Sequence record: OR234014.1
DNA: 64,000 nucleotides
Source: Staphylococcus phage SAC
Reading direction: 5' to 3' (one strand)
Position 1 is the stretch's first letter. The number at the start of each line of letters is the position of its first letter. Shown in pieces: positions 9,708 through 38,971 of the stretch. The notes under the pieces are model-generated. The model had not been told where the DNA came from. It searched no databases and saw only the letters and a program-made list of their open reading frames with translations. The position numbers and the translations under genes are program-made.

Positions 9708-9804
9708 AAATTAACTAGAAACATTAAATAAAGGTGTTTACCTAATACTCAACACCTGATATAATATAAATATAAAACAAATTAAAAGAAAAGGATTGAT
9801 AATC

Positions 9805-10020
9805 ATGAAAAAAAGACAGAAAATGTTCCACAGTAATTTAGTTTGTTCAAAATGTGGTAATACTTTTACAGTACCAAGAAAAAGAGCTCAGAAAAGAGAA
9901 GAGGGACATATAAAGCATTTATACTGTATCAAATGTAAATGTACTACTGCTCACATTGAGGATAATAGAACAGAATCAGAAAAATATTGGGATAGAGTAC
10001 AAGAAGAATTATCAAGATAA
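9805..10020 (+). CDS. Zinc-ribbon small protein (71 aa)
   Basis: CSKCGNTF...CIKCKC pairs; SD AAGGA 8 nt upstream of ATG 9805 (the track start 9796 is a TTG). Confidence 0.55.
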   Translation: MKKRQKMFHSNLVCSKCGNTFTVPRKRAQKREEGHIKHLYCIKCKCTTAHIEDNRTESEKYWDRVQEELSR

Positions 10021-10036
10021 AAAAGTAAAAAATAAC

Positions 10037-10065
10037 TTGACAAACTCAAAATAGTATGTTATATT
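10037..10065 (+). promoter_or_regulatory. Promoter TTGACA-17-TATATT (no downstream ORF before the next promoter)
   Basis: Consensus hexamers; followed by a 170-nt noncoding stretch with hairpin agctcataaagagct. Confidence 0.5.
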
Positions 10066-10204
10066 ATATATAAGCTCATAAAGAGCTATAATTTCATTTT
10101 GCATAATAAACATTCTTCTCCTTATTTTTATTTGTCGAAACTAGGTCTTTTATTACGTTTTTACCCTAGTATAAAAAAACTATAAAACGTAACACATTTT
10201 TTAA

Positions 10205-10233
10205 TTGACAAATGAATGATAATATGTTATACT
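10205..10233 (+). promoter_or_regulatory. Promoter TTGACA-17-TATACT, start site about 10241
   Basis: Consensus hexamers; the transcript would begin at the left arm of the 27-bp inverted repeat. Confidence 0.55.
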
Positions 10234-10240
10234 TTAAATG

Positions 10241-10806
10241 TAGTATAATTAAACATACATACATAATGGCTGATTTAAACAGGGTGGTACCTGTAAGGCG
10301 TAAGATTGTCGAACGAATTAAAACTTATCGGTATACGTCGGTAAGGTAATTCGTCAATAGTAATGTTTATTACAATCGGAATGCTTAGCAGTAATGTATT
10401 AGGTTTATAAAGTATAGTATCCGATGGGCTTAATTTTTGTAGGGGGTTTTGGTGGTATCCTTTACAAATACACCTTAACAAGTACATGCAGTTGGAGCAT
10501 TGAAAAATGTTTGATAACATACGATACTAGTACGAGTAGCATAAACCTGCAAAATAATAATTGGTAAAAATATAAAGATGCCGTTAAAATTCTTCATACC
10601 ATGTGAAAGTTACTAATTAATATGTTAGTATCACATTACACTATTAAACGGACTCAACCCTATGGTTGTACTGCTTTAGTAGGTTACGTGAGATGGACTT
10701 AGGTTAGCTACCTAATAGAGTCAAGCGTAGTGATTAACTTAACAATAGGTCTAGTATGTTACTTACCAGTGAGACGGTTTATGTATGTATGTTTAATTAT
10801 ACTATA
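10241..10806 (+). ncRNA. Candidate large structured noncoding RNA / inverted-repeat-bounded element (~565 nt) immediately upstream of the lysis cassette
   Basis: No credible ORF; G+C visibly higher than flanks; 10241-10266 (tagtataattaaacatacatacataa) is the exact reverse complement of 10780-10806; own promoter; abuts the RBS of the first lysis-cassette ORF. Confidence 0.45.
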
Positions 10807-10823
10807 GAAGGGTAGATACTAAT

Positions 10824-11012
10824 ATGGCATCTGCAAAACAAATTTATTATACTGAAAGTTTAATCGGTAGAGCAATTATTAATGAAAAATTCACAACTAA
10901 AAAAGATATTTGGGATAAATTAGATTTACTTCCACACACTAAGTTAGAAGACTTAGATAATAAACAAATGTCAGAAGTAATCAAAACACTTTCTCAAATT
11001 AACGAACAATAA
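10824..11012 (+). CDS. Small protein (62 aa), first ORF of the lysis cassette
   Basis: SD GAAGGGTAG; ORF directly after the structured element. Confidence 0.5.
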   Translation: MASAKQIYYTESLIGRAIINEKFTTKKDIWDKLDLLPHTKLEDLDNKQMSEVIKTLSQINEQ

Positions 11013-13384: not shown

Positions 13385-13606
13385 ATGGAAAAATTAAAGA
13401 AATGGTTTAAACGTAATGTATTAAAAAGTGAGATTACGCAGTACAAAGTATATATTAAGCATACACGTTCAAATAAAAGTAATGTTTTCTATGTTAATAT
13501 GAAAGCTAAAGGTAAAGTAGAGGCTAAAGAAAAAACGCTTGACGTTTTAAATAAGTATGCTTATAATAAAAATAACTATAGTATTTTAAAAATTGAAGAA
13601 AGATAG
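13385..13606 (+). CDS. Basic small protein (73 aa)
   Basis: SD AAAGGTGG; K-rich. Confidence 0.5.
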   Translation: MEKLKKWFKRNVLKSEITQYKVYIKHTRSNKSNVFYVNMKAKGKVEAKEKTLDVLNKYAYNKNNYSILKIEER

Positions 13607-13619
13607 GTAGTGGTTTATT

Positions 13620-13835
13620 ATGGAAGAGACTAAAGTATTAAATTTAAAAAAAGTAAGAGAAGAAAAAGGTCATACAGTTAGAAGTTTAGCACAAGAGATT
13701 GGAGTTCACTACTCACTTATTTCTTATTGGGAGAGTGGTAAAAGAAAACCTAAGAGTGCTAATCTTATGAAATTAGAAAAAGCTTTAAATACTAATAGTG
13801 TAGAATTATTTAAAGAGGTTGATGTTGATGAATAA
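13620..13835 (+). CDS. XRE-family helix-turn-helix transcriptional regulator (71 aa)
   Basis: TVRSLAQEIGVHYSLISYWESGKRKP is a canonical HTH_XRE. Confidence 0.7.
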   Translation: MEETKVLNLKKVREEKGHTVRSLAQEIGVHYSLISYWESGKRKPKSANLMKLEKALNTNSVELFKEVDVDE

Positions 13836-14466
13836 ATTTACAAAATCTATTATTAACTTTGTTGAGCGTCATGAGATTGAGGATATGATTAATATTTTTG
13901 AACTTCAAGATGTTAATAAAGCAATAGGAGACAAAGCATTTTATACTATTATAGATAATATCTTAACCTTAGATAATATAGAAGATAGAGCTATTATTTT
14001 AACTTCTTTAGATAAGTTATTAAACACTAATAGGAGTTCTTTAGTTGATTATGATTCTAAAAACCCTAATATTAGAATTTCATATAGTACTGAAGAAAAA
14101 GGTAATACAATGCAAAAAGTAGTAGAGCATTTAAGTAATAAATTAGATAATTGTTTATATCAATCTTACCCTAATATATCTAAATATAGTATTATTAGAA
14201 GTACGGCTGAGTTATTAGGAGACCTATCGTATATCGAGGATTATTATACTGGTGATGACTTAACAAACATTATTAAAGACACACATCTAGAATATATACA
14301 CAACATCATTAATAGTAGTGAATTTGATAGTATCACATTATTAGAGCAGTTTGAACTTTTAGAAGAGTCATACAGACTTGAAGAAGTAAAAGAAAAATTA
14401 GAAGAGCTAGAACACTCAGAAAAGTACACTGAAATTGATTTAATTAAGTACCTTATTAAATTATAA
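13822..14466 (+). CDS. Hypothetical protein (~214 aa)
   Basis: SD GAGG 7 nt upstream of ATG 13822; overlaps the end of the HTH gene. Confidence 0.55.
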   Translation: MLMNKFTKSIINFVERHEIEDMINIFELQDVNKAIGDKAFYTIIDNILTLDNIEDRAIILTSLDKLLNTNRSSLVDYDSKNPNIRISYSTEEKGNTMQKVVEHLSNKLDNCLYQSYPNISKYSIIRSTAELLGDLSYIEDYYTGDDLTNIIKDTHLEYIHNIINSSEFDSITLLEQFELLEESYRLEEVKEKLEELEHSEKYTEIDLIKYLIKL

Positions 14467-27863: not shown

Positions 27864-28229
27864 ATGATGACAGAAGACAATTTATATTTATTTAAAGCAC
27901 ACGTGGACAAAGTAGTGGATGGGGATACTATACATGTAACTATTGACCACGGAATGAGAACATACTCTGAGCAAAGAATAAGATTACTAGGTGTCGACAC
28001 ACCAGAAAAGAAACAAAATAATTACCAAGAAGCTAAGGAATTTACAACAACTATGTTAGAAGGAAAAGATGTTTTAATTCAAACATACAAAGATGATTCT
28101 TTTGGTAGATATTTAGCTAAAGTGTTCTACAAAGAAAATAAAGAGTATAAAAATATTAGTGAAGAATTAATTAAAAAAGGATTACTAAAAGAAAAAAGTA
28201 AATGGAATAAAGAACTTGACAAACAATAA
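27864..28229 (+). CDS. Staphylococcal (micrococcal) nuclease family thermonuclease homologue (121 aa)
   Basis: VVDGDTIHVT...RIRLLGVDTPEK matches the SNase catalytic motifs (DGDT ... R.IG.DAPE). Confidence 0.75.
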   Translation: MMTEDNLYLFKAHVDKVVDGDTIHVTIDHGMRTYSEQRIRLLGVDTPEKKQNNYQEAKEFTTTMLEGKDVLIQTYKDDSFGRYLAKVFYKENKEYKNISEELIKKGLLKEKSKWNKELDKQ

Positions 28230-28243
28230 AATATATGCTATAT
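28215..28243 (+). promoter_or_regulatory. Promoter TTGACA-17-TATATT embedded in the 3' end of the nuclease gene
   Basis: Consensus hexamers; would start a transcript at about 28250. Confidence 0.5.
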
Positions 28244-28249
28244 TATTAT

Positions 28250-28510
28250 AGTAGTAGTTAACTAACGCCTCTTAACAATGCGAAACACAGTTAGCATTTT
28301 TTAACTTTATAATGAGAGTAACAGCCTAACTATATGGGTACTGTAAAATCATTATATTCTACCTATCTACCAAGCGTAGAAAAGGTCTACGGTAACGTTA
28401 TGACTCTATTTAGCGTTACTAGCAATCCTGAGTAATGGTATTGGCTAGTTGTAGCTACCTAGTCAAGGGGTTCGAGTCCCCTCTCAGGATTTTTTCCACA
28501 AGATACCTAC
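28250..28510 (+). ncRNA. Candidate ~260-nt ncRNA ending in a tRNA-like acceptor/T-arm minihelix
   Basis: Promoter-to-terminator unit with no ORF; relatively GC-rich; 3' part tcctgag...aggggTTCGAGTcccct-ctcagga-t has a perfect T-arm (GGTTCGAGTCC) and a 7-bp acceptor-like helix, but too few nucleotides for D and anticodon arms. Confidence 0.4.
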
Positions 28511-28511
28511 T

Positions 28512-28548
28512 AAAATATCTTACACCTACTTATTTTTAAAGTAGGTGT
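28512..28548 (+). terminator. Rho-independent terminator
   Basis: cacctactt-attttta-aagtaggtg plus TTTTTTT. Confidence 0.75.
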
Positions 28549-28555
28549 TTTTTTA

Positions 28556-28584
28556 TTGACTTCTATTTACTTATGTGTTATATT
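28556..28584 (+). promoter_or_regulatory. Promoter TTGACT-17-TATATT
   Basis: Consensus hexamers upstream of the MazG-like gene. Confidence 0.55.
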
Positions 28585-28617
28585 TACTATATACTAAAAA
28601 AAAAGGAATGATTATTA

Positions 28618-37361: not shown

Positions 37362-37914
37362 ATCTTATCAATTCCTTTCGGTTTGTTTACTACGCTTATT
37401 ATATTACAGTATCTTGTATTTAATGTCAATAGGTTATACGAAAGTTTTTCAAAAGAAATGATTTCTTACTATTATATAGAAGAAACTAGAAATTACAGCT
37501 TAAATTAATTATTATAATCAATCGATTTAATTGTATACAATGCAGTGTAAAAATAACCATTTAATTTGATTAAAGGTATTGCATTTATATGTCAGTCTAT
37601 TAAAAGAAATAATGATATAGAAACAATAAAAAAGTTAGAAAAAGAATTACAAGAATTATATAAAAGAATTATATAAAAGAGTTATAGATTAGGCTATTAA
37701 CCTAATCTTTTTTTATGTTGTTTGAAGCGGTTAATATAAAGGGAAAACAGCGCCTGCTACTTAGGAAAATCATAGATTTATACTTATGATGTTTATAACA
37801 GTAAGAGAGCATTAAGCTTATAGGTCTATATTCAACGGTAATACTTTTTAGGTAGTATTTATCCTATAATATTTACTTGCTTATATAAGGTAGTTAAATA
37901 GGCAATACAAGCAT

Positions 37915-37945
37915 ATGAAAAAGCTAGAGTAAAGCAACCCTAGCT
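37915..37945 (-). terminator. Rho-independent terminator (minus strand)
   Basis: RC agctagggttgctttactctagct followed by TTTTT. Confidence 0.5.
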
Positions 37946-38351
37946 ACTTAATTTGATTCAAAATATCCTTAACAGCTTCTAATGTTAAATCTGATAACTT
38001 AATATTCTTATCACTATTAGTATCAATAATTACAGTATAGTTATCTACATCATACTGTATAACTTTAAGTACTGAATAAGTAACTAACTCGTATTCTGTA
38101 TGTGTGTGATATTCTATCATTGCGTACCCTATACCTAATTCAGTTAAGATAGGTTCTAATGTTTTTCTTCTCTCCATAAAATCTTTAATAGTATATTGCA
38201 TACCGTCTTTACTTAAAAATGCAGGCTCGTCATTGTAAATATAAAATAAATTCTCAATAAGTTCTAGTAAATCTTCTTCTGTTCCCTCACAAAGACTTAC
38301 TGTATAAAGTAATTCATCGTATAATTTATCCTTTGCTTCTTGAATATTCAT
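37944..38351 (-). CDS. Hypothetical early protein (135 aa)
   Basis: ORF in operon orientation. Confidence 0.55.
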   Translation of the reverse strand: MNIQEAKDKLYDELLYTVSLCEGTEEDLLELIENLFYIYNDEPAFLSKDGMQYTIKDFMERRKTLEPILTELGIGYAMIEYHTHTEYELVTYSVLKVIQYDVDNYTVIIDTNSDKNIKLSDLTLEAVKDILNQIK

Positions 38352-38971
38352 TGATATTCCTCCTTTATCCTATCCTAAGTGTATCATAAGTTTTAGGTAA
38401 TGTAAAGTATTTTATTTTAACCAGTATCTAACTTATCCGCTTCATTAATCCAACCTTAATTTAATCCCTGATACTTATCTTTTATCATACATACCTGTAA
38501 TAATTACTTGTCTGCAGAAAAGGTCTAAAGCTTTCATATTCAATATATTGTAGTAACAAAACATACTTAGCAACTTGTAACATAACTGTAATATTATTAT
38601 AATGCTGTTGTAACTAAATTCTCATCTAATTCTCATAAACATATGTTATAATCTAAACAACAATTAATTAGTTGTTAGTATTTTAATACGAATAACTTAT
38701 TACAGGCGTTACCTTGTTGTAGCGTAGCGTAAAACAACAAGGTATACGCTGTTTTGTTCTTATCTTTTTAAAAAGATAAGTCGTACGGTTAGTACGAAAT
38801 ACAAATATATAAATAAGTAATAACAAATATTTATACATAACTAACAGATAAATATACAAATTATTAGATTAACTATGTTGAAACGGGCATACTATGCTCA
38901 AATTGATATACAATTATTAGCCAAGATTAAATACAACATAATTACTCAGAATATAAATATAATATAAAAAA

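Follow-up and report, generated by a model that had tools for sequence, protein, structure and literature searches.

A probable divergent ROOL-class RNA gene between the zinc-ribbon and lysis genes of Twort-like staphylococcal phages

ROOL RNAs are a class of large structured RNAs with a mean length of 581 nucleotides (nt) (Weinberg et al. 2017, PMC5737381). The consensus published in 2017 comprised six junctions and three pseudoknots (PMC5737381), later described as five multiway junctions (PMC12990946), and structures of three representatives, env-120, Efa and Lsa, have been solved by cryogenic electron microscopy (cryo-EM) (PMC12286853, PMC12990946). ROOL and GOLLD RNAs form protein-free cages larger than the ribosome, although their biological function is not yet established (PMC12286853, PMC12990946). 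Here we describe an element from Staphylococcus phage SAC (sequence record OR234014.1). The window, meaning the whole 64,000-nt stretch of DNA that was analysed, is 100% identical to phage StAP1 (KX532239; Herelleviridae, Twortvirinae, Silviavirus), and is called StAP1 below. A 564-nt element at positions 10241-10804 of the window is, in all likelihood, the gene for a divergent, slightly reduced ROOL-class ornate RNA encoded on the plus strand.

The closest described transcript is a long non-coding RNA (lncRNA) of phage K and other kayviruses, which lies between gp191 and the tRNA-Asp gene gt004 (PMC9241854; review PMC10383478). By read count this lncRNA ranks first on its strand, and it is served by an early promoter of its own, while the holin and endolysin of phage K are expressed last (Finstrlova et al. 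2022, PMC9241854). Its authors likened it to ROOL and GOLLD only on the basis of tRNA proximity and abundance (PMC9241854). The phage K counterpart of the StAP1 element occupies positions 38010-38590 on the minus strand of NC_005880.2, after the gp191 zinc-ribbon gene, an annotated terminator and a TTGACA promoter, and falls within the reported lncRNA interval of 37679-38832. It is a direct homologue, with approximately 70% identity over the whole element, and has the same promoter type, a zinc-ribbon gene upstream and a lysis cassette downstream. However, the published feature is the whole 1154-nt intergenic interval, given without boundaries, structure or model match. Moreover, the phage K RNA is followed by about 330 nt and by three tRNA genes, whereas in StAP1 an open reading frame (ORF) of 62 amino acids begins after 19 nt. 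A preliminary description of the StAP1 locus, which knew of no annotated feature here, was therefore only partly right. The element is a divergent addition to the ROOL class and not a new kind of element, and its Kayvirus homologue is already known as a transcript. By analogy with that homologue, the StAP1 RNA is expected to be early and very abundant.

The element is bounded by a perfect inverted repeat of 26 nt, whose arms at 10241-10266 and 10779-10804 enclose 512 nt. The repeat had previously been recorded as perfect, which is correct, but as 27 base pairs (bp) long with a right arm at 10780-10806. When up to three mismatches are allowed, the arm sequence occurs in the window at these two sites only, and none of 100 shuffles gave a match.

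BLAST searches uncovered homologues in about 300 Staphylococcus and Mammaliicoccus Twortvirinae genomes. We aligned 14 non-redundant copies that share 67-94% identity with StAP1 and represent Silviavirus, Kayvirus, Baoshanvirus, Sepunavirus and unclassified Twortvirinae; lengths in the family range from 523 to 584 nt. A family-specific pattern also matched four IMG/VR contigs of 73-149 kilobases (kb). Three of these matches correspond to known members at 96-99.8% identity; L140, the fourth, is a divergent new member with the family gene order (nhmmer E = 2e-95 to the family).

Folding of the 14 aligned sequences with RNAalifold yielded 135 pairs, 82 of which show compensatory double changes. 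A composite structure, also of 135 consensus pairs, is paired in 97.6% of cells and includes 84 pairs that have changed on both sides. Its covariation score of 0.506 compares with 0.06-0.08 when pairing partners are slid by one to three columns, and was reached by none of 500 shuffles. The inverted repeat corresponds to a terminal helix, P1, with 25 consensus pairs, 98.9% of cells paired and double changes at 12 pairs. For example, ACAUACAU/AUGUAUGU in StAP1 corresponds to AUCUAAGCAU/AUGCUUGGAU in PG19 and to GCACUUGUU/AACAGGUGC in Golestan101. Twelve of the 14 aligned members depart from the perfect repeat by G-U wobbles and one conserved unpaired position. When homologues are compared, as the preliminary description had proposed, the repeat thus proves to be under compensatory change at 12 of its 25 P1 pairs.

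Conserved G-U pairs are numerous on the plus strand; on the other strand they would be A-C mismatches. The consensus folding energy is -121 kcal/mol in the forward direction against -84 kcal/mol for the reverse complement, and the minimum free energy of the single sequence has a z-score of -4.6. Because of the covariation, the conserved G-U pairs and the better forward folding, we conclude that the element is an evolutionarily maintained structured RNA on the plus strand. Its features, in window coordinates, are as follows.

10205-10233, plus strand: sigma-70-type promoter, with TTGACA at 10205-10210, a 17-nt spacer and TGnTATACT (-10 element at 10228-10233)
10241-10266, plus strand: 5′ strand of P1 (left arm), counterpart of the ROOL terminal helix P1
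10269-10299, plus strand: P2, a 5-bp hairpin (10279-10283 with 10290-10294) with a 6-nt loop, joined to a 3-bp outer helix by an asymmetric internal loop
10301-10387, plus strand: P3 multi-branch, with a base of 10301-10312 paired to 10376-10387, a long hairpin P3a and a short hairpin P3b at 10360-10373
10390-10413 and 10737-10763, plus strand: 5′ and 3′ strands of a P4-like long helix (19 + 4 bp)
10408-10746, plus strand: inner domain with its own closing helix, matched by positions 185-523 of the 574 in the Rfam ROOL model
10451-10454, plus strand: GGUG segment in the loop of hairpin 11, complementary to CACC at 10471-10474
10471-10474, plus strand: CACC junction segment, partner of 10451-10454 and 17 nt downstream of it
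10496-10511, plus strand: GAAA-tetraloop hairpin (helix 13), 98.8% paired with 4 of 6 pairs covarying; matches the ROOL consensus GccgaGAAAucggC
10539-10604, plus strand: linker-closing helix, GCAU at 10539-10542 with AUGU at 10601-10604, around an A-rich variable linker at 10543-10600
10699-10715, plus strand: hairpin equivalent to ROOL L18/L15 (helix 18), with loop UAGCU at 10705-10709; 5 of 6 pairs covary
10765-10778, plus strand: P19-like hairpin (helix 19) of 3 bp with a GUGAGA-type loop, directly ahead of the 3′ strand of P1; all 3 pairs covary
10779-10804, plus strand: 3′ strand of P1 (right arm)

The domains between the arms are supported individually. In P2 (helices 2 and 3), whose layout is that of P2 in the Rfam ROOL consensus, 6 of 8 pairs covary, and the helices of P3 (4 to 7) are 90-100% paired, with covariation at 16 of 25 pairs. 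The P4-like helix (helices 8 and 9; 15 of 23 pairs covarying) is the counterpart of the long 9+4+3-bp helix in the ROOL consensus. The linker at 10543-10600 is the most variable and most indel-rich block of the alignment, and is flanked by the conserved ROOL motifs GUAcaAGUAGC and UUCU..GUGAAAGUU, both of which are aligned to the model. Its closing pair, 10542/10601, is U-A in eight sequences and C-G in six belonging to different clades (GCAU/AUGU versus GCAC/GUGU). By our count the composite structure has about five multistem junctions, together with one loop-junction tertiary contact (see below).

The class of this RNA was assessed with the Rfam ROOL model (RF03087; model length 574, gathering score 99.1 bits). 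At the gathering threshold, no Rfam family matches anywhere in the 64-kb window. With permissive filters applied to positions 10000-11000, ROOL is found at 10408-10746 (model positions 185-523) with 51.3 bits and E = 3.4e-9. The Golestan101 locus gives a ROOL match of 49.2 bits (E = 4.6e-7 in a 42-kb search), and L140 gives one of 69.2 bits (E = 9.6e-14) that spans model positions 1-574 and so includes the long helix, the P19 hairpin and the 3′ strand of P1. The other Rfam matches in 10000-11000 at E values up to 10 are chance-level hits to preQ1-II, mir-787, PreQ1 and tmRNA (E 2.9-5.6). GOLLD, HEARO, OLE and raiA are without a match both in the window at the gathering threshold and in 10000-11000 at E up to 10, and the same is true of group I and group II intron families in window and region. 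The suggested comparison with covariance models for ROOL, GOLLD, HEARO, raiA and OLE therefore returned a significant, sub-threshold match to ROOL only.

Since the model evidence alone is weak, the pairs assigned by RF03087 were subjected to an independent covariation test on the phage alignment. Double changes are present at 28 of these 66 transferred pairs. Their covariation score of 0.350 stands against 0.06-0.11 for slid controls, and no shuffle among 500 reached it. Among the transferred helices, support is strongest for the 12-bp inner helix, the long hairpin, the hairpin with the GAAA loop, the L18-type hairpin and the helix that closes the linker; a few of the short ones are out of register. 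Some of the supported pairs belong to long-range helices, which would not be expected from a chance alignment, the linker-closing helix being one example.

For comparison, canonical ROOLs were collected from viral contigs. The pattern AGTAGC-N(35-65)-GTGAAAGTT was too loose for this purpose and returned 120 mostly chance loci, which local filtering reduced to five bona fide ROOLs scoring 125-360 bits. These carry, in order, an AU-rich P1 of about 16 bp, P2 with a 5′ internal loop, the P3 multi-branch, a long interrupted helix, the inner domain, an A-rich variable linker and a small 4-bp hairpin directly before the 3′ strand of P1. This arrangement recurs element by element in the phage family, from the terminal helix joining the ends to the conserved closing helix of the linker and the hairpin just before the 3′ strand of P1. 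Junction motifs are also common to both groups (GUAcaAGUAGC, UUCU..GUGAAAGUU, UUGgAGC..GAAA..GAUAAcA and GGUnGCUCC, the last in a hairpin loop), as is a covarying loop-junction contact. Further likenesses are the size (564 nt against the mean of 581 nt), carriage by phages in Bacillota, often beside tRNA genes, and abundant transcription in the one studied relative, phage K.

Some features set the phage family apart from canonical ROOLs. P1 is 25-26 bp long instead of about 16, and an additional hairpin of 36 nt is inserted at approximately 10640-10675 in the StAP1, K and PG19-type members. All occurrences found of the subfamily are in lytic Twortvirinae and none is in a bacterial chromosome. 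GOLLD RNAs resemble the element in being large, ornate phage or prophage RNAs near tRNA genes that form RNA-only cages (PMC12286853). However, they are larger (700-830 nt), are unrelated to it in sequence and secondary structure, and have no model match here. GOLLD identity was rejected on the last of these grounds. The large structured non-coding RNA with a terminal helix, one of three readings offered in the preliminary description, is thus supported by both the model match and covariation, and its class is ROOL rather than GOLLD.

Two candidate assembly contacts can be recognized. The segments GGUG at 10451-10454, in the loop of the long inner hairpin, and CACC at 10471-10474 are able to pair in all 14 sequences and switch between GGUG/CACC and AGCG/CGCU, although the number of independent switches is small. 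Canonical ROOLs have UGGCA/UGCCA and UAGCA/UGCUA at the equivalent contact. In cryo-EM structures of ROOL, the covarying loop-junction contact is the intermolecular bridge B4, or strand-swap kissing loop (PMC12286853; PMC12515178). By analogy, the StAP1 contact would be the equivalent of B4 and may be intermolecular.

The second candidate is the helix 18 loop at 10705-10709. This loop reads GGUAGCUCC in K-type relatives, GGUcGCUCC in the ROOL consensus and GGUCGCUCC in L140, and its ROOL counterpart makes a symmetric kissing contact between two half-cages (PMC12286853; PMC12990946). The StAP1 loop AGCU (10706-10709) is self-complementary, as is UGCA in MSShimriz1 and L141, which is suggestive of a symmetric kissing loop. 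The variable linker at 10543-10600 corresponds to that of ROOL, which is disordered and located inside the cage (PMC12286853).

Transcription of the RNA appears to begin at the left arm. The promoter at 10205-10233 matches 11 of 12 consensus positions and carries the TG of an extended -10 element. With the usual 7-nt spacing, transcription would start at about 10240-10242, no more than 1 nt from where the left arm begins, in agreement with the start that had been proposed. Ten of the 14 homologues align with the same promoter type directly upstream of P1, and the Romulus record has a promoter annotated at the equivalent site. A hairpin replaces the promoter at this place in SEP1, IPLA-C1C and Golestan101. 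Scans of SEP1 and Golestan101 found a strong promoter further upstream, by 148 and 89 nt, respectively. The element had also been called GC-rich; enrichment does exist but is modest, with a G+C fraction of 0.33 in the element and 0.348 in its interior, compared with 0.287 in the window and 0.217 in flanking intergenic DNA. This value lies in the top 8% of 564-nt windows and near that of the holin gene (0.349).

A second strong promoter, TTGACA-17-TGnTATATT (11 of 12 consensus matches), is located 168 nt upstream of the RNA's own promoter, within 10037-10204 on the plus strand. The two promoters have in common a 35-nt repeat that is 74% identical. The upstream promoter precedes about 140 nt without an ORF, in which two hairpins are each followed by a T-run; this stretch may represent either a small RNA or a long leader that serves as an alternative 5′ end. 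At the SEP1 locus, the sole strong promoter is at the equivalent of this upstream position.

Taken as a whole, the locus specifies a promoter-driven, strand-specific RNA with a fold that has been maintained in evolution; P1 locks its two ends, and its core is a homologue of that of ROOL. A near-consensus promoter for host-type RNA polymerase stands at 10205-10233, and its predicted start falls on the first base of the left arm. The arms form P1 and tie the 5′ and 3′ ends together, with P2, P3, the P4-like helix and the ROOL-like inner domain between them. Judging from the solved ROOL structures, monomers may self-assemble without protein into a closed homo-oligomeric cage, a hexamer or an octamer. 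In such a cage the contact between 10451-10454 and 10471-10474 would act within a half-shell, the AGCU loop at 10706-10709 would join the half-shells, and the variable linker would lie inside.

The genes that flank the element on the plus strand are the following.

9796-10020, plus strand: gene for a 74-amino-acid zinc-ribbon protein (phrog_1257, labelled 'ribosome associated inhibitor A; zinc finger domain')
10824-11012, plus strand: ORF of 62 amino acids with no function assigned (phrog_987), whose ATG at 10824 is 19 nt past the right arm; followed by the holin gene (11093) and two lysin genes

All 17 family loci occupy one syntenic site, directly 3′ of the zinc-ribbon gene and 5′ of the 62-amino-acid ORF, holin and lysin genes. 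The reported placement, with the BRO and zinc-ribbon genes on one side and the holin-lysin cassette on the other, is accurate. Less exact was the statement that the right repeat ends 17 nt before a ribosome-binding site, as a Shine-Dalgarno-like GAAGGG run (10808-10813) begins 3 nt past the arm and the ATG 19 nt past it. The zinc-ribbon protein, which has a weak match to Pfam A2L_zn_ribbon, may be either a partner of the RNA or the product of a gene merely conserved in order. Neither this gene nor that for the 62-amino-acid protein was found beside canonical ROOL loci in the limited flanks available.

The presence of tRNA genes 3′ of the RNA varies. Romulus has a tRNA-Ser that starts 2 nt past P1, CF5 has a tRNA-Asn at +111 nt, and Kayvirus-like phages have tRNA-Asp, tRNA-Phe and tRNA-Trp about 330 nt past the RNA. 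StAP1, RP15, SEP1, IPLA-C1C, Golestan101, MSShimriz1 and L140 have no tRNA at that place, and neither Rfam at the gathering threshold nor ARAGORN finds a tRNA gene in the 64-kb window.

Two of these arrangements include sequence that StAP1 lacks. In Romulus (JX846613), an insertion of about 1.4 kb relative to StAP1 (3707-5140 of L002, the Romulus locus) lies directly past the 3′ strand of P1 and contains the tRNA-Ser, an insertion sequence (IS) transposase gene and an Rfam RAGATH-18 RNA (63.8 bits, above the gathering score). The BLAST match between StAP1 and Romulus breaks at the last base of the right arm. In Kayvirus-like phages, the approximately 330 nt between the RNA and tRNA-Asp are unannotated and free of ORFs (2531-2861 of L003, the phage K locus, AY176327; equivalents in L005-L009). 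This stretch falls inside the published lncRNA interval.

We found no terminator after the element in StAP1, and in Romulus the tRNA-Ser abuts P1. For these reasons the 3′ end of the RNA is probably set by processing and not by termination. In the part of the work of Ling et al. relayed by PMC12515178, a tRNA precursor fused to the 3′ end of ROOL leaves cage assembly undisturbed. In Romulus, the 3′ end could be produced by RNase P cleavage at the abutting tRNA-Ser, while in StAP1 trimming back to P1 or RNase III cleavage might generate it, and P1 would protect both ends.

An alternative is that the main role of the element is cis-acting. The RNA would then be a structured 5′ leader in which RNase III cuts the 26-bp stem, thereby separating, stabilising or timing the mRNA of the 62-amino-acid ORF and the holin-lysin genes. 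From general knowledge of RNase III, the perfect 26-bp duplex is a plausible substrate, and between P1 and the ORF, which begins 19 nt further on, we found no terminator-like site and no separate strong promoter. The link to the lysis genes is not conserved, however, and most relatives have tRNAs or other sequence between the RNA and those genes. Kayvirus-like phages have some 330 nt, tRNA genes and a further promoter there, and Romulus has the tRNA-Ser and the IS element. In phage K, moreover, this abundant RNA is made early, and holin and endolysin come last (PMC9241854). Approximately 135 consensus pairs and conserved tertiary-contact motifs far exceed what a processing stem needs, and the stem is already accounted for as the ROOL P1, which has G-U wobbles and one unpaired position in 12 of 14 members. 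We consider a mainly cis-acting role improbable, but RNase III cleavage of P1 may be a secondary maturation step.

Several observations weigh against assignment to ROOL. All tested members score 49-69 bits, below the gathering score of 99.1, and the composition bias terms are high, at 13.5 and 16.3 bits. CF5, SEP1, IPLA-C1C and MSShimriz1 gave no ROOL match in a 13.8-kb search with stricter filters, so that detection depends on the filters used. The outer 5′ domain of the window sequence (10267-10407) is left unaligned by the ROOL model. An nhmmer profile of the family found no sequence-only similarity in the bona fide ROOL loci. A reciprocal covariance model of the family's inner 5′ half, R1, recovers true ROOLs weakly (E = 0.1 and 3.6), and although these matches are at the right sub-positions, non-ROOL matches score similarly. 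Relative to the ROOL consensus, the phage family lacks one small inner hairpin together with a conserved ACAAUAGACG segment, and only two of the three P3 hairpins are present. Oligomerisation could be altered, or even prevented, by the loss of these hairpins. The palindrome argument for helix 18 comes down to a single switch between clades, from AGCU to UGCA. As the non-palindromic UCGCU is present both in L140 and in canonical ROOLs, we downgraded the covariation of this loop from proof to suggestive evidence.

Such observations could be explained if the element were a Twortvirinae-specific structured RNA not homologous to ROOL, in which case the sub-threshold matches would reflect AT-rich composition and convergent motifs such as GNRA hairpins. 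What speaks for homology is that three independent members give E values from 3e-9 to 1e-13 (4.6e-7 for Golestan101), and that long-range helices predicted by ROOL covary in an alignment the model had not seen. The domain order is identical, as are the positions of the linker, the P19 hairpin and P1. Likewise, the loop-junction contact is present and covarying in both groups, and the junction motifs coincide. We consider a non-homologous RNA improbable, and the ROOL-class assignment is retained.

The best match of R1 is a locus on the minus strand of a 163-kb IMG/VR contig (L034, 178-303; 22.8 bits, E = 0.024), which has AAGUAGCCUAAAUC and a GAAA hairpin. This locus may be a further ROOL-like variant overlooked by the pattern filter for canonical ROOLs.

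There is almost no probability that the element encodes a small protein, be it SAP1_018 on the minus strand or RP15_gp178 on the plus strand, and the protein-coding reading was rejected even though hypothetical ORFs are annotated over the element in GenBank. The longest open stretch, of 81-83 codons on the minus strand, carries the annotation SAP1_018 (window 10275-10520). Outside the StAP1/RP15 pair, the same stretch has 3-10 stops in nearly every frame, none of which is open throughout. Indels are mostly not multiples of three (most are 1-2 nt), and the variable columns are distributed over codon positions as 122/122/132, without periodicity. The earlier judgement that no plausible ORF exists here holds in substance, since related phages reveal no conserved protein-coding gene but broken frames and annotated ORFs that are inconsistent in strand and position.

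The GenBank 'hypothetical protein' annotations that conflict with the RNA are SAP1_018, RP15_gp178 (1823-2014 of L012) and four small ORFs in MSShimriz1 (1404-2139 of L133). They are very likely spurious.

A miniature inverted-repeat transposable element (MITE) or other mobile insertion, also raised in the preliminary description, would likewise be short non-coding DNA with terminal inverted repeats, here perfect over 26 bp, and Romulus has an IS transposase about 180 nt downstream, but this reading was rejected and deserves practically no credence given the single copy in the window, the lack of a target-site duplication at the flanks, the same syntenic site in 17 of 17 family loci and an interior conserved to the same degree as the arms. 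Arm differences among phages are compensatory or G-U wobbles, which indicates selection on an RNA helix and not on transposase binding sites. A plasmid search gave no match, and a scan of 185,579 representative bacterial and archaeal genomes did not find the family-specific pattern either.

With the assignment to ROOL, the abundant early lncRNA of Twort-like staphylococcal phages becomes a divergent ROOL relative that now has boundaries, a covariation-supported structure and candidate contacts. The question of ROOL function thereby moves into culturable lytic Staphylococcus aureus phages, which are already studied by transcriptomics and used in phage therapy. The findings also indicate that the Rfam ROOL model misses a subfamily present in about 300 phage genomes, and they correct spurious hypothetical ORF annotations in many deposited genomes. 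In our view the main value lies in the tractable system and the annotation fix.

From the genomic context we would guess, with low confidence, at an early host-takeover role linked to translation or tRNA handling. A bolder picture, offered as a long shot, is that lytic Twort-like staphylococcal phages alone carry a distinct, reduced ROOL subclass, in which P1 is longer, two hairpins are absent and the loop between the shells is a palindrome of 4 nt, and which would assemble into a cage of different stoichiometry and act as a natural display scaffold. Its 3′ end would be fused to a tRNA in Romulus and to the mRNA of the small ORF and lysis genes in StAP1, and together with the zinc-ribbon protein the cage might sequester or deliver translation components early in infection.

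A further ORF-free intergenic stretch, of about 390 nt, was noted at 28230-28617 on the plus strand of the window. It has a TTGACA-17-TATATT promoter at approximately 28216-28244, a tRNA-like T-arm, GGGGTTCGAGTCCCC, at approximately 28468-28482 but no tRNA according to ARAGORN, and a terminator composed of a hairpin and T-run at approximately 28524-28556. Positions 28303-28362 give a sub-threshold Rfam match to the S. aureus small RNA TEG147 (36 bits versus 56, E = 1e-5). The 31 nt at 28491-28521 are 90% identical to the 3′ part of a second phage K lncRNA (13595-14229), of which this stretch may be the Silviavirus counterpart.

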